This document shows, one piece after another, positions 10,505 to 60,646 of a stretch of 64,000 nucleotides of DNA. Each line of letters opens with the position of its first letter. Position 1 is the stretch's first letter. The translations under genes and the position numbers were made by a program. The stretch lies in NCBI GenBank assembly GCA_037431425.1, contig GCA_037431425.1_4129.1. One strand, given 5' to 3'. Under the pieces are notes generated by a model. The model saw only the letters and a program-made list of their open reading frames with translations. It ran no database searches and was not told the DNA's origin. This stretch comes from a phage.

Positions 10505-11175
10505 ATTACGAATATGATCAACAATCCGTTAATCAGATGGCAGATTTATTAAGTGGTCTTAATGATATTGAAGCTGGTGAAACACATAATGCAGCAGGTG
10601 TTCCCTATAAAGCAAGTGGTGATATTGGTGCAATGACTGCAATTTTAACTTCATTAAATGAAGCTGGAATGGATTACGGTACTGATCCAGAGAAGATTCA
10701 TCCGAACGTTGTACCATACAATGCACCATTCAATGAACACATGAATGGACAACAATCTACCATTCAGCCATATAGTCAACCATCTAAGCCGAAAACTAAT
10801 TGGAGCTTAGTAGAAGAAAAAGTTCAAGGAACTAAATCTACCAAAGTGTATAGTATCAAGTGTAATCATAGTTCACAGATTATTATGAATAATATTATGA
10901 TGTATGAAGCTGCACTTACATTAGTTAATCTTTTGAATGAAGGGCGAATGTTGACAGATGCAAAACTCCTTGGTATAATTAGTTCTGGATTACAATACAC
11001 AAATGTAATTAGTGAGGCATTAAAAGCTGCTCAAAGGCGACAACGTGTTCTTAATGAATCAAAGTATGACGAAGCAAAAGAATTAGATATAATCATTGCA
11101 GAAAAGAAAGCAGAAGCTTATAAATTGAAAGAGCGTGTACTGAACTTTCTTAAAAATGAAGGGTATATTACCTGA
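10501..11175 (+). CDS. Hypothetical protein
   Basis: 224-aa ORF, ATGA overlap with upstream gene. Confidence 0.5.
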   Translation: MNYEYDQQSVNQMADLLSGLNDIEAGETHNAAGVPYKASGDIGAMTAILTSLNEAGMDYGTDPEKIHPNVVPYNAPFNEHMNGQQSTIQPYSQPSKPKTNWSLVEEKVQGTKSTKVYSIKCNHSSQIIMNNIMMYEAALTLVNLLNEGRMLTDAKLLGIISSGLQYTNVISEALKAAQRRQRVLNESKYDEAKELDIIIAEKKAEAYKLKERVLNFLKNEGYIT

Positions 11176-23316: not shown

Positions 23317-26009
<2,693 letters not shown>

Positions 26010-26095
26010 AAAAAACTAAATGCTATACATAAATATTTTTTGATTTTTAATAATAAATAATCAAGAGTGTTTTGTATTATGGAGAAGAATATACA

Positions 26096-26668
26096 ATGAA
26101 CAATTTACTACAAGTATTTAAAATTGAAGTTGCAGGGACAAATCTAGATAATATTCCATATTATATGTATGGTGATTATGATTCGTCTTCCACAACGACT
26201 GCACCGACAGATAAACAGACAATTGATAAGTCAATTGCACTTTTGCGTTACCTACAACTTTCTCGTCTGCTATCTACTTATACTGTACCAGTATACAGTA
26301 CTGTTGAATTTGAGACTCCAGGAACTGCAAAAACAATCCCAACTGGTGCGACAATTACTGTTGGTTACATTAGTTACGAGCCATTTCTTAGTACACTAAG
26401 TGCCACCGAGCAAGCAGCATTAAGTACTGAAGAAATGAAAACAGCAAAAGCCGCTGAGATTATCCAAACACTAATCAATGATTCGTTGAAAGGTGATGGC
26501 ACTAATGCAATGGTAAATGAAGAGATCACCGTACAGAAAACTATCAATCGCAGTAAGGACGCACTTAGTACAAGTACAAGTACTGTTGATTTTATTGAAT
26601 ATGAAAACGTGTATCTAGATGTTCCATCTATTACTGACGCATCGGTAGTATCTTACGTTAAACTATAA
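26096..26668 (+). CDS. Hypothetical protein
   Basis: ATG 26096 with GGAG 12 nt upstream; Ser/Thr-rich. Confidence 0.5.
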   Translation: MNNLLQVFKIEVAGTNLDNIPYYMYGDYDSSSTTTAPTDKQTIDKSIALLRYLQLSRLLSTYTVPVYSTVEFETPGTAKTIPTGATITVGYISYEPFLSTLSATEQAALSTEEMKTAKAAEIIQTLINDSLKGDGTNAMVNEEITVQKTINRSKDALSTSTSTVDFIEYENVYLDVPSITDASVVSYVKL

Positions 26669-26691
26669 TTTTATAACATGGAGTTCTTGAC

Positions 26692-26886
26692 ATGACTAAC
26701 AAAACATTTTATGATCGTATTATTGAAGACAAGGGAGTTTTTGATAAGGTAGTTTATGACTTAGAACTTATGATCAAAGACGCACCGAATCCAAGAGTAC
26801 GAACCCAAGCAGAGTTTGCAAAAACTTATCTTGTTCAAGTTCAAGCAATTTGTGAAGCAATCAAAAAACATAATGATAGTGCTTGA
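26692..26886 (+). CDS. Small hypothetical protein
   Basis: 64-aa ORF. Confidence 0.45.
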   Translation: MTNKTFYDRIIEDKGVFDKVVYDLELMIKDAPNPRVRTQAEFAKTYLVQVQAICEAIKKHNDSA

Positions 26887-26911
26887 CAGAACAAAAGTTC
26901 TATCCTATAAT
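26883..26911 (+). promoter_or_regulatory. Consensus sigma70 promoter (TTGACA-17-TATAAT)
   Basis: TTGACA 26883-26888, 17-nt spacer, TATAAT 26906-26911; about 45 nt upstream of the IF3-like gene. Confidence 0.7.
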
Positions 26912-26955
26912 TACTATCGAACAACACATTAAAATCATATTGGAGTTTTTATTAC

Positions 26956-28018
<1,063 letters not shown>

Positions 28019-28036
28019 AATATAAACTTAAAAAAA

Positions 28037-28089
28037 CTCCAAGATTAGATATATGATAAATATCTAAAATAAATCTTGGAGTTTTTTTT
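28037..28089 (+). terminator. Long hairpin terminator
   Basis: ctccaagatt / aatcttggag outer stem with inner agatat/atatct pairing, then T8; A tract upstream suggests bidirectional capacity. Confidence 0.7.
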
Positions 28090-28102
28090 ATTATAAAGGG
28101 GT

Positions 28103-31128
<3,026 letters not shown>

Positions 31129-31129
<1 letters not shown>

Positions 31130-31920
31130 TGCCTAGTAAAAGCAAAAGTCAAGCCAAATTCTTTGCTATCGCAGCACATGATCCAGAATTTGCAAAGAAA
31201 GCGGGAATTTCACAAAGTACTGCTAAAGAATGGAATGCCGCAGATGAAAAGGAAGGAAATCTTAAAAAAAGTTCTAAACTTCCTAATAAGGTAAAAGAAT
31301 CAAGTATGCGTGGTTTGGTAGATATAGTAAAAGATGCAGAACTTGCTGATGATACAAAAGAAGAACCATGTGATATAATTGATGAATCTGATGATATTGA
31401 AAAGTTGGAAGAAATGCCACAACGATTTGATAGTTTTCAAGGTCAAGACCGAGATGAGTTTGTCGATAAAACTGCCAAACTAACTGGTAAACATAACATG
31501 GTTAAGTTCGCAGAACATAAAGACTATGATGTGTATATTAATAAAAACGGTTCTGGATTTATCGCTTATGATAAGTCTGGTAAACAGCTTGCAGTCGTTA
31601 GTGGTCATTTATCTAATGATGCAGTTCTTGGTGTACAAAATGTATTTGAGATTGCAGCCACTGCATCTAAAACTGGCACTAAAGGTATCATCTATAACAT
31701 CTTTATGGATATGGTTGCCCATGGCATTAAAGTGCTAAGCGATAGTTTACACACAGATGATGCAATTAAATTCTGGACGCGATTGATTGGCTCACATCAA
31801 GTTTATGTTGTTGGTGGTGGAGAAGTTCTTTCAAAGGCGAGTCCAGATAAGATTCATAAGTACTGGAGTGATGATGAGTCAAGTCCAAGTGCTGAACTTC
31901 AACTTATGTTAGTGAAATAA
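31129..31920 (+). CDS. Hypothetical protein
   Basis: 263-aa ORF, TAATG overlap with upstream gene, terminator downstream. Confidence 0.5.
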
Positions 31921-51098: not shown

Positions 51099-51517
51099 AG
51101 TACTATCGAATTCGAGTTGGAGTAAGCTCTGGTTTTAGTAATTGGGTATATTATGATTTACCTGATAGCTATACCGTAGAAGATGTAATTAACTTATATT
51201 ATGAAGAAGAGACATGGGTACTCAGTACTGAAACACATAGTGTAGTGTGTGAAGAACTATGTGCAGAAGATTACAAGCACTCTGTCCAAGCAATGAAGTA
51301 TTACAGTAACGATGTGAAGATGTTATCTGAAAACATTTTTCCGGTAAAAGAATGGGCAATTTTACTTGCAAATCCTAACAAACCTGTTAGAATTGGTTAT
51401 CCAAACAATCATATGGTTTATCGAATGAATAATAAACGTGAGCTAAGTTATCAGTATGAATACAGTGCTTCTAAGTTTGGAGTTCTACCACAATTTAAAA
51501 AGGCTTATCCAGTATGA
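51095..51517 (+). CDS. Hypothetical protein
   Basis: 140-aa ORF. Confidence 0.5.
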   Translation: MKYYRIRVGVSSGFSNWVYYDLPDSYTVEDVINLYYEEETWVLSTETHSVVCEELCAEDYKHSVQAMKYYSNDVKMLSENIFPVKEWAILLANPNKPVRIGYPNNHMVYRMNNKRELSYQYEYSASKFGVLPQFKKAYPV

Positions 51518-51849
51518 ACAATGACAACAAAGAATTTATAGTACGTTGTAGTTGTGGCGATAATACTGAACATTGTGTTCACATTGCACAATTTGACTTG
51601 ACTCAAGAAGATGGAGATGGTAAACTTGGTCAATGTTTGGTGAGTATGCGTTTGAATCCTTTCTTAAAATGGCACAAACGTGTATTGGTTGGATTGAAGT
51701 ATATTTTTGGTGTAAACGATTTTCAATATAAAGAAGCAATGATTGATGTTGACATTCTGAAAGAAGTTGTGTTACAATTAGAAGACACCCGACCCGATGA
51801 GGTAAAGAAAGAAGAAAGAGATAAACGTAGTGATGTGAAGGTTTTATGA
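51514..51849 (+). CDS. Hypothetical protein
   Basis: 111-aa ORF, ATGA overlap. Confidence 0.5.
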   Translation: MNNDNKEFIVRCSCGDNTEHCVHIAQFDLTQEDGDGKLGQCLVSMRLNPFLKWHKRVLVGLKYIFGVNDFQYKEAMIDVDILKEVVLQLEDTRPDEVKKEERDKRSDVKVL

Positions 51850-52046: not shown

Positions 52047-52475
52047 ATGAATATCGAACAAATCATCAGTAATCATTCTTTCTTCGCTCCAGAAACTGGT
52101 CGTGTAATTGAGAATGTCAAAATCGAAGAACTTATGGTGAATGTTAAATATAAAGAGCCAAATGATGAGATTAGCAGCACTTTTTGTGCACTTCGTGCAC
52201 CATTCCGCAATGAAAAAGCAAAAAAACCAGCATATGTTCTTGCAATTGCTTTAGGGTGTGTTGTTAAACTTGCAGTTGATGAAAATATTATTAATATCAA
52301 AGTCGCCCCTACCAATGACGAAGAAAACATTGATTTGAACTTTGATGGTAATCTCGACGAAGATGTATTTTTTCAACAGTCACTTGTTTATGACTTCCGT
52401 ACCGTGACATATTCACATATTAACTTCGTCAATGAAATGGTTGATATTGTAGCCAAATATGAAGAATCTCTATAA
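52047..52475 (+). CDS. FQxS-motif paralogue family member
   Basis: C-terminal DEDVFFQQSLVYDF. Confidence 0.55.
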   Translation: MNIEQIISNHSFFAPETGRVIENVKIEELMVNVKYKEPNDEISSTFCALRAPFRNEKAKKPAYVLAIALGCVVKLAVDENIINIKVAPTNDEENIDLNFDGNLDEDVFFQQSLVYDFRTVTYSHINFVNEMVDIVAKYEESL

Positions 52476-52486
52476 TTAAATCATAA

Positions 52487-52509
52487 AAGCCTCCATGTTG
52501 GAGGCTTTT
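52487..52509 (+). terminator. Rho-independent terminator
   Basis: aagcctcca / tggaggctt stem, tgt loop, T tract. Confidence 0.7.
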
Positions 52510-52532
52510 CTCACATAAGGAAATGAAGAAAT

Positions 52533-53084
52533 ATGATTGAACAAATTAATATTCTCACACAACAAATTACCGACTTTCTTTCAGATAAAGAAGGTTTCAA
52601 AACTGAAGTGAAAATGCACGGAGTTAGTCTTGATGTAATTTCACCAGATGGAAATGTTACAAATTATGATATGTACGAATTGTTTCTTTACACTTTAGCA
52701 GTACGTAAACTAGGAAGTGACATTGAACTAAACATTAACACTGATAGTGATGGAAATAAAATTTTTGCAATCAATACAAGTGCTAAGTATGATGTTAGTG
52801 CAGAAATTAAAAAAATTAACGATAGCTTTGTTGGTTTCACCCATGATTCAATTCAAGGTGTTTTTGTAGGTAAACAAACTTCATCAAGTCAATGCCCATT
52901 TTGTATTATGACTTTATATAAAAATGGTGATTGGATGCGACAAGACTTGGTATATGCTGAAATGTTGTATGCATTTACACATGGTCTAGAAATTGAATTA
53001 GATGATAGTGCTTTTTGCTTTAAGAAAATCCGAAAACTCACAAATGATATTCAAAAGCAACTTAAAGAATTAAATGATAAATAA
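52533..53084 (+). CDS. Hypothetical protein
   Basis: 183-aa ORF; N-terminus (MIEQINILTQQI) resembles family N-termini but the C-terminal motif is not evident. Confidence 0.5.
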   Translation: MIEQINILTQQITDFLSDKEGFKTEVKMHGVSLDVISPDGNVTNYDMYELFLYTLAVRKLGSDIELNINTDSDGNKIFAINTSAKYDVSAEIKKINDSFVGFTHDSIQGVFVGKQTSSSQCPFCIMTLYKNGDWMRQDLVYAEMLYAFTHGLEIELDDSAFCFKKIRKLTNDIQKQLKELNDK

Positions 53085-53195
53085 ATGTACCAGAAGTGGT
53101 TAACATATCATGTTATTTTCCTCCCTTACATAATAATGATGCGTTATTAGATTTTCATTTTATTATTTCTTTTTTGTACAAAATCATATTAGTAC

Positions 53196-53218
53196 TGCCC
53201 CGTATATCGGGGCATTTT
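53196..53218 (+). terminator. Rho-independent terminator
   Basis: tgccccg / cggggca stem, then T4. Confidence 0.6.
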
Positions 53219-53241
53219 ATTATCTAAAATATGGTGATTTT

Positions 53242-53634
53242 ATGAAAAACATTGGCTCTTCTATACAAAAAGACCTTTCATTTTACCTTAATAAATTCAG
53301 AAGTATAAATGGTAATAAATTTAATAGTATCTATCAGTTCACACATAAAGAATATATTACTATTGATCCCTTTTCAAAAAAACTGATGTATGTTAATGAT
53401 AATAATTATAGTGTTAAATTATCATTCGATATTGTGTTAGATAAATTAACATTTACGGAATACACTACCAATAAAACTTCATTTTTACACAAGTATAATA
53501 GAAAGGTATATAATCATATTTCTAGTTATTTAAATGAAGATTATCACTTTCAACAATCTACAATAGAAAAAGTATTATTCAGTACTGAAGAATTAAAAGA
53601 ATTATATTATTGGTATGAGAAATTTACATCTTGA
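53242..53634 (+). CDS. FQxS-motif paralogue family member
   Basis: C-terminal NEDYHFQQSTIEKV. Confidence 0.55.
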   Translation: MKNIGSSIQKDLSFYLNKFRSINGNKFNSIYQFTHKEYITIDPFSKKLMYVNDNNYSVKLSFDIVLDKLTFTEYTTNKTSFLHKYNRKVYNHISSYLNEDYHFQQSTIEKVLFSTEELKELYYWYEKFTS

Positions 53635-53689
53635 CATTATGGTGGTTTCATCTTACAATACAAGATAATGATGCGTTGAGGACAAATTC

Positions 53690-54100
53690 ATGAGTATAGA
53701 TTTACACAATGAACTACAATATTTTTTTGATTTGGATATATCACGTTTGAACAGACATGTCAATCATATATCCAGAACTATATGGTGGTCTGATGAGGCT
53801 GATGAACCAAGGATTCAGATTTGTGATAATTTGTCAGTTTTAAGATTGTATGTTCTTGATACCGAAATGAATATTATGATAACATACGTACCACCCACAA
53901 ACAAACTTCTAATCAACACACTAAACCCAGATACAGTACTGAAAATTTTTGATTTGGATACGATACAGTCAAGCGAAACACTATTCCAACGTTCATTGGT
54001 TGATGATCTAGGGGGTATTTCTTTTGACGATATATTAAAATTGAAGAAGATGTATAATGAATTATTAGAGATTAAAAATACCGTTCTAATGGGGATTTAA
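53690..54100 (+). CDS. FQxS-motif paralogue family member
   Basis: C-terminal SSETLFQRSLVDDL. Confidence 0.55.
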   Translation: MSIDLHNELQYFFDLDISRLNRHVNHISRTIWWSDEADEPRIQICDNLSVLRLYVLDTEMNIMITYVPPTNKLLINTLNPDTVLKIFDLDTIQSSETLFQRSLVDDLGGISFDDILKLKKMYNELLEIKNTVLMGI

Positions 54101-54101
54101 T

Positions 54102-54506
54102 ATGGTAAGTTTATTAGATATTGATAATACTAGTCTGGTTCTGGTGAAAAAAGGATTAATTCCAAATTCTAACAAGATTGATTATGCTGTTATTGAAACA
54201 AATATTGGGAATATCTGGTACGACTCTGAAAGAGACATTGTGTTTAGCTGTGTAGATAGTGATCGTTCTGAGTGCTGTAGGGTTGGGCATGACGGACAAT
54301 TTATTTTCGAATTTCGTTTCTGGAAAGATTCCAGATTTCACCAGGAGCATGTTTCAATTACAAATGTAAATTGTAATGAAGAATCATTCTTCATGGAAAG
54401 TACTATTAATGATTTTGGCTCAGTTACTTTTGAGTACTATAAAAAAGTATATAACTTGTACAGAGAAGTAATTCGAATCATAAGAACCTCTGAGGGTCAA
54501 GATTAA
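54102..54506 (+). CDS. FQxS-motif paralogue family member (variant FFMES)
   Basis: C-terminal NEESFFMESTINDF. Confidence 0.5.
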   Translation: MVSLLDIDNTSLVLVKKGLIPNSNKIDYAVIETNIGNIWYDSERDIVFSCVDSDRSECCRVGHDGQFIFEFRFWKDSRFHQEHVSITNVNCNEESFFMESTINDFGSVTFEYYKKVYNLYREVIRIIRTSEGQD

Positions 54507-54507
54507 T

Positions 54508-54885
54508 ATGACTACTACCATATATAATATTTTAGGTAACTTGAATAAAAACATAGATAATGATTTTGTTATAGTTGAAAACACTAAAAATATAATTCAT
54601 CTACCATTGGGTACACCAGATAGGTTAATTTTTAACATATACGCTAACACACTGACATACATACACGATGGTATGGTTATCGTTGTGCTTGATATTAAAG
54701 AAAATACAATACGATATGCATATGACTTTAACGTTTATTGGTCAAGAACTCATTGTATTGATATTGAGGAAGATGAACTTTTTCAATTATCGTTAATTGA
54801 GAAAAATGTAATAGGAGTTACCGAGATTGGTATTGTTAAAAAAGCTTTGGAATATGCAAATAAAAAAATAAATGGCGAACTATGA
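54508..54885 (+). CDS. FQxS-motif paralogue family member
   Basis: C-terminal EEDELFQLSLIEKN. Confidence 0.55.
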   Translation: MTTTIYNILGNLNKNIDNDFVIVENTKNIIHLPLGTPDRLIFNIYANTLTYIHDGMVIVVLDIKENTIRYAYDFNVYWSRTHCIDIEEDELFQLSLIEKNVIGVTEIGIVKKALEYANKKINGEL

Positions 54886-55346
54886 TGAACATTGAGGAAA
54901 TAAAAAATCATTTTGAAATTGCATTGTCTTGTGATTTTGATAGTTGTTATGTTACTGAACCAGAAGATATAATTAGAATTTCCACATCGTTTTCAGAAGA
55001 ATACAATATACTCATTGAGAAATCATATGACAGAACCGAACTCTCATTTTACAATAAGGATTTACGAACAACATCATTTATATTATTATATAACACAACA
55101 TCGGATATAATAGAGATTATAACAAGTAAAACAGGTAAAACAAGTAAAGATGTACATTATGAGACTATACCAAATGTAAGTTATTGTTCAACAGAAGAAG
55201 GATACTTCCAGGAATCACTTATTAAAAATTTATCAGTTAGCTATTCTGATTTAAGCATTATAGTCAATTATGTGGAAAAGTTAAATGATTTCGTTCTATC
55301 GATGTTTGATATCACTGAGCAAAAACCAAAGGAAATCAAATGTTAA
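54882..55346 (+). CDS. FQxS-motif paralogue family member
   Basis: C-terminal TEEGYFQESLIKNL; ATGA overlap. Confidence 0.55.
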   Translation: MMNIEEIKNHFEIALSCDFDSCYVTEPEDIIRISTSFSEEYNILIEKSYDRTELSFYNKDLRTTSFILLYNTTSDIIEIITSKTGKTSKDVHYETIPNVSYCSTEEGYFQESLIKNLSVSYSDLSIIVNYVEKLNDFVLSMFDITEQKPKEIKC

Positions 55347-55795
55347 ATCCTGGACATTTTTTTCATTTACTGGACATTACACCTATACCCGATTTAATCA
55401 GCGAGACTAATCATTATCGTGATATTGGAATTGTATCAATGGAATATGATTCACCTGACTTTAAATGTTACGTAACATACGATCAGGTGGCTTATGAGTC
55501 AGAGCCTGCGATTAAAAAACCATCATATATTTTTGTGTTCATATATAATGATTATAGTGGTGATGTACTGAATGATGTTCATATTGACACATTTGAAATA
55601 TGTGGTAATATTATATCAGATGATTCAGCATCCACATTTGATTTGGAATTAAACAGTACTGAAGAGTCACTTTTTCAGTTGAGTACTATATGTGATACTA
55701 TATTAACTCTAGATGACATTGAGAAATTTAAAGAACAGCTTGACGCAGTTCGTGAGATGTTCTATAATCATTATCCAGAAGTAGAGTTCAATTAA
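55340..55795 (+). CDS. FQxS-motif paralogue family member
   Basis: C-terminal TEESLFQLSTICDT. Confidence 0.55.
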   Translation: MLNPGHFFHLLDITPIPDLISETNHYRDIGIVSMEYDSPDFKCYVTYDQVAYESEPAIKKPSYIFVFIYNDYSGDVLNDVHIDTFEICGNIISDDSASTFDLELNSTEESLFQLSTICDTILTLDDIEKFKEQLDAVREMFYNHYPEVEFN

Positions 55796-56452: not shown

Positions 56453-58333
56453 ATGAAACCTATCCGAGTACTATCTCTTTTTAATGGGATGAGTGTAGGA
56501 TACATGGCATTAAAAGATGCTGGTATCCCTGTTGAAAAATATTATTCATCCGAAATTGACAAATTTGCTATAGCTGAATCCCAAGCTAACTTCCCCGATA
56601 TCATCCAATTGGGTGATGTAACTAGATGGAGAGAATGGGATATTGAATGGGATAAGATAGATCTACTGATGGGTGGTTTTCCATGCTTCCCAGCAGGAAC
56701 TATGATAATGACAAATAAAGGTCATAAAGATATAAAAGATATAAAAATTGGTGATATGGTTCTTACACACACTGGACAGTACCAAAAAGTATTGAGTACT
56801 GGTGTTAAAAAGGCTCCCACTCGTATTATTACAGGTCAAGGTCACCTTCCAATTGAATGTACCGATAATCATCCATTTTGGAGTAGGGAACGTCTAGCCA
56901 ATAAATGGAATAATCAACACCGAAGATATGATTCTGTGTTTTCTGAACCGCAATGGGTAAATGCTATAGATCTTACTAAACAAAGTTATATTTGTAATGT
57001 TAAAAATATTACACATAATACAGTAAGTGATAAAGATGAAAAATATTGGTATTTTGTTGGTCGTTTTATGGGTGATGGATGTGCTAGTGTATCTAATAAC
57101 AAATACAGTATTACTATTGTAGATTCATTAGATAAAGTTGATGAATTGAAAAAATGTTTTGATGATTTTGGATACAAATACACATTAGCTATTAAAGATA
57201 ATCATGTAAGATGTGATATATATAGCAAAAAGCTTTATGATGAATTAATATGTATTGGGCATAAATCACAAAACAAATGTTTACCACCTGAAATATTCAA
57301 TGAAACTATCAATAACAAAGAAGCATTTATTAAAGGATACATGGATGCAGATGGTTGTGAGGATAAACACAATAAAAAATACAAATTTACCACCACAAGT
57401 TATAAAATAGTTCTTGGTATGCAACAGTTAATCTTAGATACTTATCAACGTCATTGTACTATTAGTCAAACTGTTCCAAAAACAAAAAAATATATAAAAA
57501 ATAAGTTGGTTAATCAGCTTCCGTATTGGAATGTTCATTTTAGCTATAATAAAATTAAAAGAGATGATGTAATATATGATGAAATTTATATATGGAATCG
57601 TGGTGTAAAAAGTAATGTACCAACCGGAGAATGGAAAACCGTTTACAATATTGAAGTTGCAGTAGATAACACATATACAGCGAACAATATTGTAGTTCAT
57701 AACTGCCAAGCGTGGTCAGTTGCAGGTAAACAGGGTGGAATAAATGATCCTCGTGGTATGTTATTCCATACAATGGTTGATATTTACCAGCACATAAAAA
57801 GTCTCAATCCAGACTTGAAAGTACTGTTCGAGAATGTTAAAATGAAAGAAGATTTCAAGCAATACATTAATAGTGTTCTTGAGATGACACCAGTACTGAT
57901 AAATTCCCAGCATTATACGCCTCACTTCAGGCAGAGATATTACTGGTACAGTACTGATAAACTTTTTATACCACCTGCATTATCAAATGCACCTAAACTT
58001 CAAGATATTATTGAAGATGGTTGGTACACTGACAGAACCGCTTCGTACTGTATAGATGCTAACTATTTTAAGGGTGGGGATTGTAACCAGTACTTTAATA
58101 AATCAAGAAGACAAATTGTTTTCAAAGAACCTGATATCGATAGGGATTTCCTTCTTGAACATGGTAAGCGAAATGTGGACTATCGTCATTTAACAGTGCA
58201 AGAGTGTTGCATGTTGCAAGGAATTGATGTAAACTACTTCAAAGTTAGTAGTTCAACACAAGCATACAAAATGCTTGGGAATGGATGGACTATGCCAGTT
58301 ATATCACACTTACTACGAGATATATTCTTTTGA
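56453..58333 (+). CDS. DNA (cytosine-5)-methyltransferase interrupted by an intein
   Basis: Motif I LSLFNGMSVG; motif IV split as GGFP | intein | CQAWSVAGK; motif VI FENV; GNGWTMPV near C-terminus; host protein about 286 aa without the intein. Confidence 0.8.
   Translation: MKPIRVLSLFNGMSVGYMALKDAGIPVEKYYSSEIDKFAIAESQANFPDIIQLGDVTRWREWDIEWDKIDLLMGGFPCFPAGTMIMTNKGHKDIKDIKIGDMVLTHTGQYQKVLSTGVKKAPTRIITGQGHLPIECTDNHPFWSRERLANKWNNQHRRYDSVFSEPQWVNAIDLTKQSYICNVKNITHNTVSDKDEKYWYFVGRFMGDGCASVSNNKYSITIVDSLDKVDELKKCFDDFGYKYTLAIKDNHVRCDIYSKKLYDELICIGHKSQNKCLPPEIFNETINNKEAFIKGYMDADGCEDKHNKKYKFTTTSYKIVLGMQQLILDTYQRHCTISQTVPKTKKYIKNKLVNQLPYWNVHFSYNKIKRDDVIYDEIYIWNRGVKSNVPTGEWKTVYNIEVAVDNTYTANNIVVHNCQAWSVAGKQGGINDPRGMLFHTMVDIYQHIKSLNPDLKVLFENVKMKEDFKQYINSVLEMTPVLINSQHYTPHFRQRYYWYSTDKLFIPPALSNAPKLQDIIEDGWYTDRTASYCIDANYFKGGDCNQYFNKSRRQIVFKEPDIDRDFLLEHGKRNVDYRHLTVQECCMLQGIDVNYFKVSSSTQAYKMLGNGWTMPVISHLLRDIFF
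56684..57703 (+). mobile_element. Intein with LAGLIDADG homing endonuclease domain (340 aa)
   Basis: Starts CFPAGTMIMT (block A), ends VVHN followed by extein Cys; two LAGLIDADG-like motifs FVGRFMGDGC and IKGYMDADGC. Confidence 0.8.
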
Positions 58334-58815
58334 ACATAAACAAACACCAAACTTATATAAAACGTGCAGAAAGTTTCAAACGGCTGGCTGTAAAATCTGA
58401 ATTAGAATTTAATTTGTATTATCCTAATATTGGTGATGAGGTATTTTATTGCTCACATTCAAAGAATGGAACTTTACTTAAATCGGGTAAAGGAACTATT
58501 GTTGATATGACCGCAAATTTCAGAGGTAAACTTAATGTAATGTACAAAGTGCAAGATTCAAGTACTGAGTGTATTCATGAAGTGATGCATAACATACCTG
58601 CATATCCAAAAGATTTTGTTCAGCTAATATCTCGAAGGGAGAAACCTATGTTCTATTGTGGTTACGACAAATTAACCAAACAAATTATTCCTAATACTAT
58701 GGGAAAATTTAAAAGTGATGTAAAATCTGAATTAGAAAAGAAATTTGGTACATCATGGGAAACTGAAAACGAGTTTATCGAAATTCGTTTAATTGAAGTT
58801 ACTATTATTGATTAA
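58285..58815 (+). CDS. Hypothetical protein
   Basis: 176-aa ORF overlapping the methyltransferase 3' end; start uncertain. Confidence 0.4.
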   Translation: MDYASYITLTTRYILLNINKHQTYIKRAESFKRLAVKSELEFNLYYPNIGDEVFYCSHSKNGTLLKSGKGTIVDMTANFRGKLNVMYKVQDSSTECIHEVMHNIPAYPKDFVQLISRREKPMFYCGYDKLTKQIIPNTMGKFKSDVKSELEKKFGTSWETENEFIEIRLIEVTIID

Positions 58816-58858: not shown

Positions 58859-59374
58859 ATGTCAATTCATTATGTTAAAATTATTAACAATATTCTTGAT
58901 TCTTGGGAAGATGTCATTATTGGCAAAAAGAAGCCTTTTCCAGTTCATGCACTAACTGGAAGACTACAATTCAGAATGTCAAACAAAACTGAAACGTTTA
59001 ATAATCATGATATTTGTATTACATTAAAAACACCTGTTAGTATTGTAATTAAAAAAAATAAAGATGATGAATTGTCATTATCTATTGGTCGTGATAAAAT
59101 TATTTTAAGTAATTTGTCTGAAGAAGAATTCTTTCAAAGAAGTACTATCATCGACATGAAAGATTTCACATATGAATCATTAGTAGAACTCAATACACGC
59201 TTTGATGATATTCAGGAACGATTGCGACCAATCCTTCGTAGAGAAGAAGAAGCCTGGATTGAAAGTATGAATAAGATGCAAGAAATGTTAAAAGAAAATA
59301 TTAACAATCTGGGTAAAGCCACAATGGAAATTGGTAAAACTTTAAAACTCAACTTTTCAAAGGATCGTAAATGA
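58859..59374 (+). CDS. FQxS-motif paralogue family member
   Basis: ATG 58859 with AGGTG upstream; SEEEFFQRSTIIDM. Confidence 0.55.
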   Translation: MSIHYVKIINNILDSWEDVIIGKKKPFPVHALTGRLQFRMSNKTETFNNHDICITLKTPVSIVIKKNKDDELSLSIGRDKIILSNLSEEEFFQRSTIIDMKDFTYESLVELNTRFDDIQERLRPILRREEEAWIESMNKMQEMLKENINNLGKATMEIGKTLKLNFSKDRK

Positions 59375-59823
59375 AAATCGATGAACTGATTTATATTTTA
59401 GGTAACTTGCACAAAATATTGTTACATCGTAACGAGATGAATAAACTAGGATATAATATAACTAATATAAATGAAACATCATTTAAATATAATTCAATCA
59501 CTGGTGTAAATTATAATATTGTGTATTGTCATGAAACTGACCCAGACTGCTATCAACTTACGTTATACTTTTATCCAACAAACCCTGCCATTGTTCAAGA
59601 CATATCATCAATATCACTTGACCCAGATGGTGAAATGAGTATAGAATATAGCTATGATTCTAAAAAAGAATGTTACGTTGAAGATATGAAAAATATGTTT
59701 AACGATGCATATGTGTTCCAGCTAAGTACTGTACATGATGTTGGAAGTACTAATGGGCAATTTTGGAATACATGCTATTATCATATGATTGGAATTTGTA
59801 AATTACTAAAAGGCGATGATTAA
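59371..59823 (+). CDS. FQxS-motif paralogue family member
   Basis: C-terminal DAYVFQLSTVHDV. Confidence 0.5.
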   Translation: MKIDELIYILGNLHKILLHRNEMNKLGYNITNINETSFKYNSITGVNYNIVYCHETDPDCYQLTLYFYPTNPAIVQDISSISLDPDGEMSIEYSYDSKKECYVEDMKNMFNDAYVFQLSTVHDVGSTNGQFWNTCYYHMIGICKLLKGDD

Positions 59824-60206
59824 TGAAATACAGCATTGAAGTACATTACACTACTGGTGATACTGAAAATCAATATAACATAGTTAAGACCGTTGATATT
59901 CAATGGGATACTAAAGAGGAAGCAGTTGCTGCTTTACAGTGCTTAAAAGAGCATTGGGTGTTTTATATGAAGCAAGATAATTGCTATACAAAAGAACACG
60001 AAACTATCGTTAAAAATGCTAAACAAAAAGAGTGGTTTGACCCAATTTCACCAGAATATTCATTTTTGGTTAAAGTTGGAGGCGTGACAGTTCCCTTACG
60101 AACACCGTGGAACGGCTACTTTGAAACTCTTCATAATGCACGAGTTGTCGCAGTTGACAATCCTGAACAAATCGATTTTGATTCATTGGACTGGAAAAAA
60201 TTATGA
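59823..60206 (+). CDS. Hypothetical protein
   Basis: 127-aa ORF, translationally coupled, no family motif. Confidence 0.5.
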   Translation: MKYSIEVHYTTGDTENQYNIVKTVDIQWDTKEEAVAALQCLKEHWVFYMKQDNCYTKEHETIVKNAKQKEWFDPISPEYSFLVKVGGVTVPLRTPWNGYFETLHNARVVAVDNPEQIDFDSLDWKKL

Positions 60207-60646
60207 CAGTACTGCACAGATTGAAGAAGGTTAAGCATCCAGTTGTATATGAGGACTGGAAACGACAAAAGTTACTGGGTGATTTTTATTACCCAAAATC
60301 TAAAGTTCTTGCGAATTCAAGATGTACATATATCAAACATAACGATAAAGATACAGTATTTGTTGAAATGGGGTTCAATCCATCAAATACAATGTTCAGT
60401 ACTAACCAAACATTTTACAAATTTCATATCAAAAAAGATGTATTTTCTATTAAAATTATAAAACATTTAGTTGAAGATCTGGTATACAGTGAAGAAAGAG
60501 TTCCTTTATCATTAGTGGATATTCCTTATAATAATTTAGAGGAAATGTACTTCCAACAGTTGACAGTACAAGAAAACTTTGGTATGATAGGACTTCAAGA
60601 GTTAGAGATGATTAAGCAAATTCGTGATATCTACTTTAAGGAGTAA
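60203..60646 (+). CDS. FQxS-motif paralogue family member (variant FQQLT)
   Basis: C-terminal LEEMYFQQLTVQEN. Confidence 0.5.
   Translation: MTVLHRLKKVKHPVVYEDWKRQKLLGDFYYPKSKVLANSRCTYIKHNDKDTVFVEMGFNPSNTMFSTNQTFYKFHIKKDVFSIKIIKHLVEDLVYSEERVPLSLVDIPYNNLEEMYFQQLTVQENFGMIGLQELEMIKQIRDIYFKE

Follow-up and report, generated by a model that had tools for sequence, protein, structure and literature searches.

The 64,000 nt window analyzed here (contig GCA_037431425.1_4129.1 of the phage assembly GCA_037431425.1) carries, at positions 52047–55795, a tandem array of small genes that encode seven members of a single protein family, whose relationship by descent is confirmed by comparisons of sequence profiles. 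These positions show 99.5% identity to Escherichia phage ph0011 (OP557969.1; 348,217 bp), in whose record window coordinate 52047 corresponds to coordinate 282896, and 82–83% identity to about 30 other jumbo phages of the 121Q/PBECO4 type. Phage ph0011 is an Asteriusvirus and belongs to the 121Q/PBECO4/RaK2-like jumbo phages, with E. coli as its host. Every gene of the array is labeled “hypothetical protein” in ph0011 and in the approximately 30 related records. In jumbo phages of the RaK2/121Q type, which are being characterized as candidates for therapy against E. coli, Klebsiella, and Salmonella, more than 80% of the genes lack an assigned function.

The first gene of the array (52047–52475) codes for a protein of 142 amino acids (aa) with the motif DEDVFFQQSLVYDF. 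It is followed by genes at 53242–53634 (130 aa; NEDYHFQQSTI; GGTGA ribosome-binding site upstream), 53690–54100 (136 aa; SETLFQRSLV), 54102–54506 (134 aa; EESFFMESTI), 54508–54885 (125 aa; EDELFQLSLI), 54882–55346 (154 aa; EEGYFQESLI), and 55340–55795 (151 aa; EESLFQLSTI), the last of which encodes a very acidic protein with an isoelectric point (pI) of 4.05. The third to seventh genes are translationally coupled, with a single nucleotide between neighbors at 54100/54102 and at 54506/54508, while the genes starting at 54882 and 55340 overlap the preceding ones by 4 and 7 nt, respectively. Three further members are located 3' of a cytosine methyltransferase (Dcm) gene: 58859–59374 (171 aa from its ATG; EEEFFQRSTI), whose product has a long C-terminal helical extension, 59371–59823 (150 aa; DAYVFQLSTV; N-terminus MKIDELI), and 60203–60646 (147 aa; EEMYFQQLTV). 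All ten genes lie on the + strand. The initial annotation, made from the sequence alone, had described seven consecutive open reading frames (ORFs). These seven are real and their coordinates, lengths, and motif strings were given exactly, but a non-member gene (52533–53084) lies between the first two, and the three genes downstream of the methyltransferase were absent from its list. In the ph0011 record, the gene at 53242 is annotated with only 83 aa, starting at about window position 53385. The longer ORF of 130 aa is favored because its orthologue gp132c in phage phAPEC6 is full length, a ribosome-binding site precedes the upstream start, and the structure of the longer product is modeled with confidence (see below).

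Pairwise BLASTP comparisons between members are weak, with a best expectation value (E) of 0.002, and are therefore insufficient to demonstrate paralogy. For this reason, profile methods were used. Leave-one-out hidden Markov models (HMMs) regained each omitted member among the 333 ORFs of the window with E-values of 1.5e-7 to 3.5e-3. In a leave-one-subfamily-out design, in which each member was dropped along with every sequence that shares more than 35% identity with it, the 40-aa C-terminal module recovered 10 of 10 members (E 1.5e-16 to 3.8e-4), and N-terminal profiles recognized only three of the ten. An HMM built from 120 family sequences matched exactly ten window ORFs at E ≤2e-6, while all others remained at E ≥0.039. 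The weakest fit to this profile is shown by the product of 54508 (E 2e-6; C-terminal module, E 3.8e-4). A regular expression of the motif, tuned after the fact, gave ten matches in the six-frame translation of the window, all of them in family ORFs, where 0.01 were expected from 200 shuffles. Searches of Pfam, NCBIfam, PADLOC, and, by profile, PDB sequences yielded no relative of the family and only stray matches of single members. The initial annotation had proposed that the seven genes are paralogues of an uncharacterized family with highly divergent N-terminal two-thirds; both statements are borne out, as the C-terminal similarity is significant in the profile tests and no characterized family was found in these searches.

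Across the family, the signature can be written as [ST]-E-E-x-[FY]-F-Q-x-S-[LT]-[IV]-x-[DN]. It is located about 30–45 residues before the C-terminus, and conservation is limited to about 12 profile positions, namely E, E, x, F/Y, F (95%), Q (75%), x, S (84%), L/T, I/V, x, and D. AlphaFold2 models of two of the ten window members, the products of 52047 (predicted local distance difference test, pLDDT, 90.8; predicted template modeling score, pTM, 0.85) and 53242 (pLDDT 86.4; pTM 0.82), both consist of an N-terminal helix, an antiparallel beta meander of six to seven strands, a short helix that contains the motif, and a C-terminal helix. The product of 53242 thus adopts the same modeled architecture as that of 52047, even though its N-terminus is unrecognizable by sequence. 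In both models, the motif helix comes between the sheet and the last helix. Foldseek searches with the models against the PDB returned nothing at E <0.1, and structural matches in BFVD were restricted to uncharacterized proteins from phages of this clade. Among known systems, the closest in fold are sheet-plus-helix types (polo-box; LptA, LolA, and RseB; SRPBCC helix-grip).

Within the motif helix, [ST]-x-x-E would serve as a classical box for N-capping. One face of the helix would be made up of F, [LT], [IV], and the F/L that follows, with Q in its middle, and the invariant F and Q as well as the [LT][IV] pair would hold the helix on the sheet. The same helix is plausibly capped at its C-terminal end by D-[FL]-G, and T-x-E, conserved a few residues past the motif, may cap the last helix. 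It is this pattern of capping and one-face packing, derived from helix periodicity and capping rules rather than from the model coordinates, for which the signature is taken as the probable folding core of the scaffold and not as an active site. The family proteins have lengths of about 100–230 aa, and the extra length of the longer members contains no Pfam domain. The grand average of hydropathy is negative in nine of the ten window members, and none has a hydrophobic segment resembling a membrane span. The family proteins have a median pI of 4.8, with 80% below 5.5, compared to a median of 5.6 for the remaining ORFs of the window. Of the ten members in the window, three are near neutral or basic, with pI values of 7.8–8.9. 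By these properties, the family proteins are predicted to be soluble and mostly acidic.

A census of the remaining ph0011 genome, in which all ORFs of at least 50 aa were scanned, revealed that the array is a small part of the family. The unmodified HMM matched 41 ORFs at E ≤1e-3, and the iterated HMM converged at 60 ORFs, or at 58 with reversed-sequence decoys mixed in. No reversed decoy and none of the 532 minus-strand ORFs was matched, so that all members lie on the + strand, and the acidic-acidic-x-x-F-Q-x-S-[LT]-[IV] core was aligned in every genome-wide match. The approximately 60 members correspond to about 10% of the 582 annotated features of the ph0011 record. They are concentrated in two arms: the left arm, at about 30.7 to 56.3 kb of the record, contains 35 members and the right arm, at about 282.9 to 325.6 kb, contains 21, with the ten of the window among them. 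Four outliers are found at 70.8, 111.9, 124.6, and 125.7 kb, and the HMM scan detected no member in the structural and replication core between 126 and 282 kb. Directly 5' of the left arm, positions 24757–31258 of the ph0011 record contain a separate series of about 30 ORFs that follow one another on the same strand with overlaps and encode about 65–85 aa each, which may represent a second family of tandem paralogues.

Outside of ph0011, the family appears confined to one group of phages. A profile search of 1.84 billion cluster representatives retrieved only 83 clusters at E ≤1e-3, nearly all of them with lengths of 80–220 aa and the pattern [ST]EE-x-[FY]F[QM]-x-S-[LT]-[IV]-x-[DN]-[FL]. The core signature [DE][EA]-x-x-F-Q-x-[S]-[LT]-[IV] occurs in 10 of 10 window members, in 60 of 60 members genome-wide, and in 72 of the 79 short representatives listed. 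A broader profile of 59 sequences retrieved close relatives only among 5.8 billion proteins. As judged by tblastn, cluster look-ups, and BFVD, the family is found only in RaK2-like jumbo phages of at least 310 kb. The carriers are Asteriusvirus, Alcyoneusvirus (RaK2, K64-1, and Muenster), the Salmonella phages Munch, 7t3, and PHA46, Klebsiella phage fENko-Kae01, the Erwinia phages Kaldavass and Hallingskeid, Xanthomonas phage XbC2, GAP32, and CBB; the syntenic 40 kb of RaK2 contain 13–14 members. One left-arm member bears the label “Phi92_gp213”, which could be taken as a link to phi92; tblastn gives only Asteriusvirus-type phages. A metagenomic protein of 2272 aa (P0052) matched the profile at E 2.9e-12 with 17 repeats and was rejected as a spurious low-complexity tandem-repeat ORF, a false positive to be kept in mind when the profile is reused. 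The sole strong match to a curated family concerns a metagenomic chimera of 115 aa (P0055), in which residues 9–33 match the end of Pfam RecQ-1-like_HTH (E 3.7e-12) and are followed by a typical C-terminal module of the family (TEEEFFQQSTIHDF...). It may have arisen by deletion or fusion, or be an artifact of assembly.

The same proteins are present in PHROGs, but there they are split into many unrelated-looking groups without any assigned function. Each window member matches one group of its own at seed level (E 1e-39 to 1e-81), the groups comprising phrog_23322, 33313, 24941, 24510, 36084, 30841, and 30548, and weak cross-matches between the groups of the members involve 17453, 24321, 21500, and 27549. 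This resource does not show the unifying motif, the shared fold, or the family size of about 60 copies per genome. With the family profile, annotators can bring seven or more PHROG groups together and mend at least one gene call that is too short. The literature searched contained no account of these proteins as a family, nor of their motif or fold. Paralogy has been reported for phages of the same clade and at the same order of magnitude (about 10% of genes): nearly 10% of the gene products of RaK2 are paralogues (PMC3622015), and 22 paralogous ORFs were counted in CBB (PMC5259590). The available parts of these papers give counts only and contain no family definition, motif, structure, or arrangement.

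Comparison with other phages of the clade indicates that the copies are old. Nine collinear reciprocal-best pairs connect ph0011 and RaK2, comprising 52047 and ORF184 (E 1.7e-43), 53690 and ORF186, 54102 and ORF187, 54882 and ORF191, 59371 and ORF196, 60203 and ORF198, as well as three further pairs downstream. Because of these nine pairs, the duplications are considered ancient, and a recent accordion-type expansion is not supported. By these comparisons, they predate the split of the genera, and the copies have been retained as distinct orthologue groups with some turnover. Between ph0011 and phAPEC6, the ratio of nonsynonymous to synonymous substitution rates (dN/dS) is 0.08–0.34 for family genes (mean about 0.21) and 0.03–0.27 for neighboring genes (mean about 0.12), and aa identity is 46–91% for members (mean about 73%) and 62–99% for neighbors (mean about 83%). 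The most conserved member is the product of 52047 (dN/dS 0.08), whose orthologues are RaK2 ORF184 and phAPEC6 gp134c; the fastest evolving is that of 54882, whose aa identity to its phAPEC6 counterpart is 46%. Constraint extends over the N-terminal as well as the C-terminal half of each family protein, and the family genes are, as measured by dN/dS, under purifying selection. The initial annotation had also spoken of a duplicated cassette; a recent duplication is not supported in view of the nine collinear orthologues and these dN/dS values, which point to ancient and stably retained copies.

The promoter distribution is consistent with early transcription. Near-consensus sigma-70 promoters, defined by at least 11 of 12 matches, occur 19 times on the + strand of the window and once on the − strand, where 2.7 +/- 1.4 are expected, and 104 times on the + strand and eight times on the − strand of the whole ph0011 genome. 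Their density is highest at 0–25 kb and 275–325 kb, with a peak in the right arm of the family, and lowest in the structural region. When sites with at least 9 of 12 matches are counted, their total is no higher than in shuffled sequences. The window promoters include those at 10951, 26883, 43573, 45995, 62976, and 63523, and many of the window promoters are located 40–60 nt 5' of gene starts. Two predicted near-consensus sigma-70-type promoters on the + strand would serve the array itself: 51749–51778 (TTGACA-18-TACAAT with a TG extension) lies 5' of the genes at 51846 and 52047, and 53631–53659 (TTGACA-17-TACAAT) lies 31 nt 5' of 53690, from which it is separated by a GAGGA ribosome-binding site. 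A predicted intrinsic terminator on the + strand (53196–53214; TGCCCCG-loop-CGGGGCA, then TTTTATTAT) is situated in the gap between the non-member gene and the gene at 53242 and is predicted to divide the first transcription unit from 53242. The designation of this part of the genome as an early-gene region in the initial annotation is plausible in view of the strand bias of near-consensus promoters, and in CBB the equivalent region of small genes, which includes a phage sigma factor, was likewise proposed to be early (PMC5259590, available part). No transcriptome or transposon-insertion sequencing (TnSeq) study of the Asteriusvirus clade was found in the literature searched.

The reading that is tentatively preferred here, at odds somewhat short of even, is that these genes form an ancient multigene family, restricted to this lineage, whose products would be early binder proteins of the cytoplasm. 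A diversified binding surface would be provided by the beta sheet with its loops, which have diverged past sequence recognition. Expression would begin early, at sigma-70 promoters of the host type, with the genes organized in translationally coupled operons, and the proteins would work in the cytoplasm as stoichiometric binders, with one host target per paralogue, in the service of host takeover, counter-defense, or host range. The initial annotation had likewise proposed possible effectors of host takeover, anti-defense, or superinfection exclusion. Extending this to the whole clade is more doubtful: each RaK2-like phage might possess an inherited “library” of about 60 scaffolded binders, encoded by about one in ten of its genes, all belonging to one unrecognized superfamily with a conserved helical core and hypervariable sheet surfaces, and deployed early against host factors and defenses. 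Several observations weigh against a role as early binders of host proteins. The case made from promoters is one of consensus matching, and the buried or exposed state of the motif residues is deduced from the periodicity of the helix and from rules of capping. The 12 positions contain five conserved polar residues, namely two E, Q, S, and D, which exceeds what is usual for a pure core and would allow for a shared binding site. The long-lasting 1:1 orthology and dN/dS values well below 1 speak against a fast arms race and agree just as well with phage functions of a housekeeping kind. In the literature searched, no data on function, expression, or interactions were found for any member or any RaK2-like phage.

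Indeed, ancient 1:1 orthology, collinearity, and purifying selection, together with the position of some members next to genes of replication and nucleotide metabolism, would fit a phage-internal role, in which the proteins serve as regulators of transcription or replication or as assembly chaperones for the complex “hairy” virion. Such a role is nevertheless judged unlikely, as about 60 highly divergent paralogues are unusual for housekeeping functions, the structural and replication core at 126–282 kb is devoid of members, and the members evolve faster than their neighbors in both aa identity (about 73% compared to about 83%) and dN/dS (about 0.21 compared to about 0.12). Another internal possibility, that the proteins are encapsidated and delivered together with the DNA by means of an N-terminal leader, follows a speculative suggestion in the initial annotation that the N-termini loosely recall the targeting leaders of internal proteins. 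I-x-E resembles the site of the T4 prohead protease, and two or three N-termini (MMNIEEI, MKIDELI) hold this sequence; within the first seven residues it is confined to the products of 54882 and 59371 and is missing from most members, although the specificity of a RaK2-like protease may differ. T4 IPI, IPII, and IPIII are likewise small and non-essential-looking, and a few family N-termini are loosely leader-like, but the family has no sequence similarity to these proteins, and its N-terminus belongs to the folded domain, where it is modeled as helix 1. The phAPEC6 orthologues (gp134c, gp132c–127c, gp121c, and gp120c) do not appear in the available part of the virion table of that phage (62 proteins), where the rows pass from gp078c to gp149c, and absence from a mass-spectrometry list does not prove absence from the virion. 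In the RaK2 region examined, no family ORF is labeled “virion structural protein”, a label given to ORF182 directly 5' of the array. With the family missing from the covered parts of both sources, the internal-protein idea is unsupported and encapsidation is regarded as extremely improbable.

A different division of labor between the two parts of the protein would be that of an adaptor, in which the helical module provides a shared docking site for one partner and the variable sheet recruits different targets. Candidate partners are a phage Clp protease or ATPase, a phage sigma factor, or the host RNA polymerase, and ph0011 has its own ClpP (84302–84997), Clp ATPase (170840–173128), and annotated sigma factor. 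The concentration of conservation in a single short stretch with many polar residues (two E, Q, S, and D) would agree with docking, as would the chimera P0055, which couples the C-terminal module of the family to an unrelated N-terminal fragment and therefore suggests that this module can exist on another N-terminus. However, P0055 is a single cluster and maybe a deletion artifact, the partners remain candidates, and the motif is confidently modeled as a packed internal helix whose residues obey capping and core rules, whereas the tails of known adaptors are disordered peptides. Docking is thus considered a decidedly unlikely function. The curved sheet gripping a helix could also form a pocket like that of helix-grip, lipocalin, or LolA-like proteins and sequester small molecules, for example, immune signaling nucleotides; such a ligand “sponge” appears highly unlikely.

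Expansions of this kind are already known, as lineage-specific multigene families occur in giant viruses; unusual in the present case are the share of the genome and the fact that no solved structural relative was found. The MGF110, MGF360, and MGF505 families of African swine fever virus (ASFV) and the Bcl-2-like and ankyrin families of poxviruses are terminal multigene families involved in host range and immune evasion. Like these, the phage family appears to comprise dozens of divergent tandem paralogues with a conserved fold, located in both terminal arms and outside of the core, but there is no kinship in sequence or structure, and the likeness is an analogy of organization only. The SUKH/Imm immunity proteins of polymorphic toxin systems also form tandem arrays, in which each protein neutralizes a different partner. 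They resemble the family as small alpha+beta proteins with extreme divergence on a conserved scaffold. However, none of 82 members matches a SUKH/Imm entry of Pfam, the order of secondary structure elements differs, and, unlike SUKH/Imm arrays, the family is found only in phage genomes.

Recognition of about 60 “hypothetical proteins” as one family turns scattered orphans into a single tractable question, about a family whose motif is defined, whose fold is predicted with confidence, and whose members form stable orthologue groups and two genomic arms. If the members are host-directed binders, they would constitute a large untapped set of inhibitors of bacterial proteins or defense systems and would probably help to determine host range. 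Otherwise, about one tenth of the coding capacity of the clade would serve some phage-internal process. Should the notion of an inherited binder library prove true, the family would represent, among phages, what the terminal families are in poxviruses and ASFV, and it would supply many new anti-defense or host-takeover proteins.

Some neighboring genes of the array deserve mention. The non-member gene at 52533–53084 (+; 183 aa) was considered as a divergent member, as its product carries the string FTHDSI, and was rejected with E 6.5 for the family HMM and a probability of 0.6% in hhalign. Its product shows 48% identity to RaK2 ORF185 and is better conserved than its neighbors, and its orthologues, phAPEC6 gp133c and RaK2 ORF185, also stay between members. 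Directly 5' of the array, the gene at 51514–51849 (+; 111 aa) is a counterpart of RaK2 ORF182 by position and length alone. The methyltransferase gene at 56453–58333 (+) encodes a C-5 cytosine DNA methyltransferase that is split by an intein with a homing endonuclease: its DNA_methylase domain is interrupted by Hint and LAGLIDADG domains at about residues 77–417, and the product has 626 aa, compared to the 861 nt gene gp123c of phAPEC6, which has no insert. The longest form of the following ORF (58285–58815, +; 176 aa) begins 49 nt inside the 3' end of the methyltransferase gene in another frame, and its start is uncertain. It shows 95% identity to the corresponding region of phAPEC6, where only a part of it is annotated as the 55-aa gp122c.

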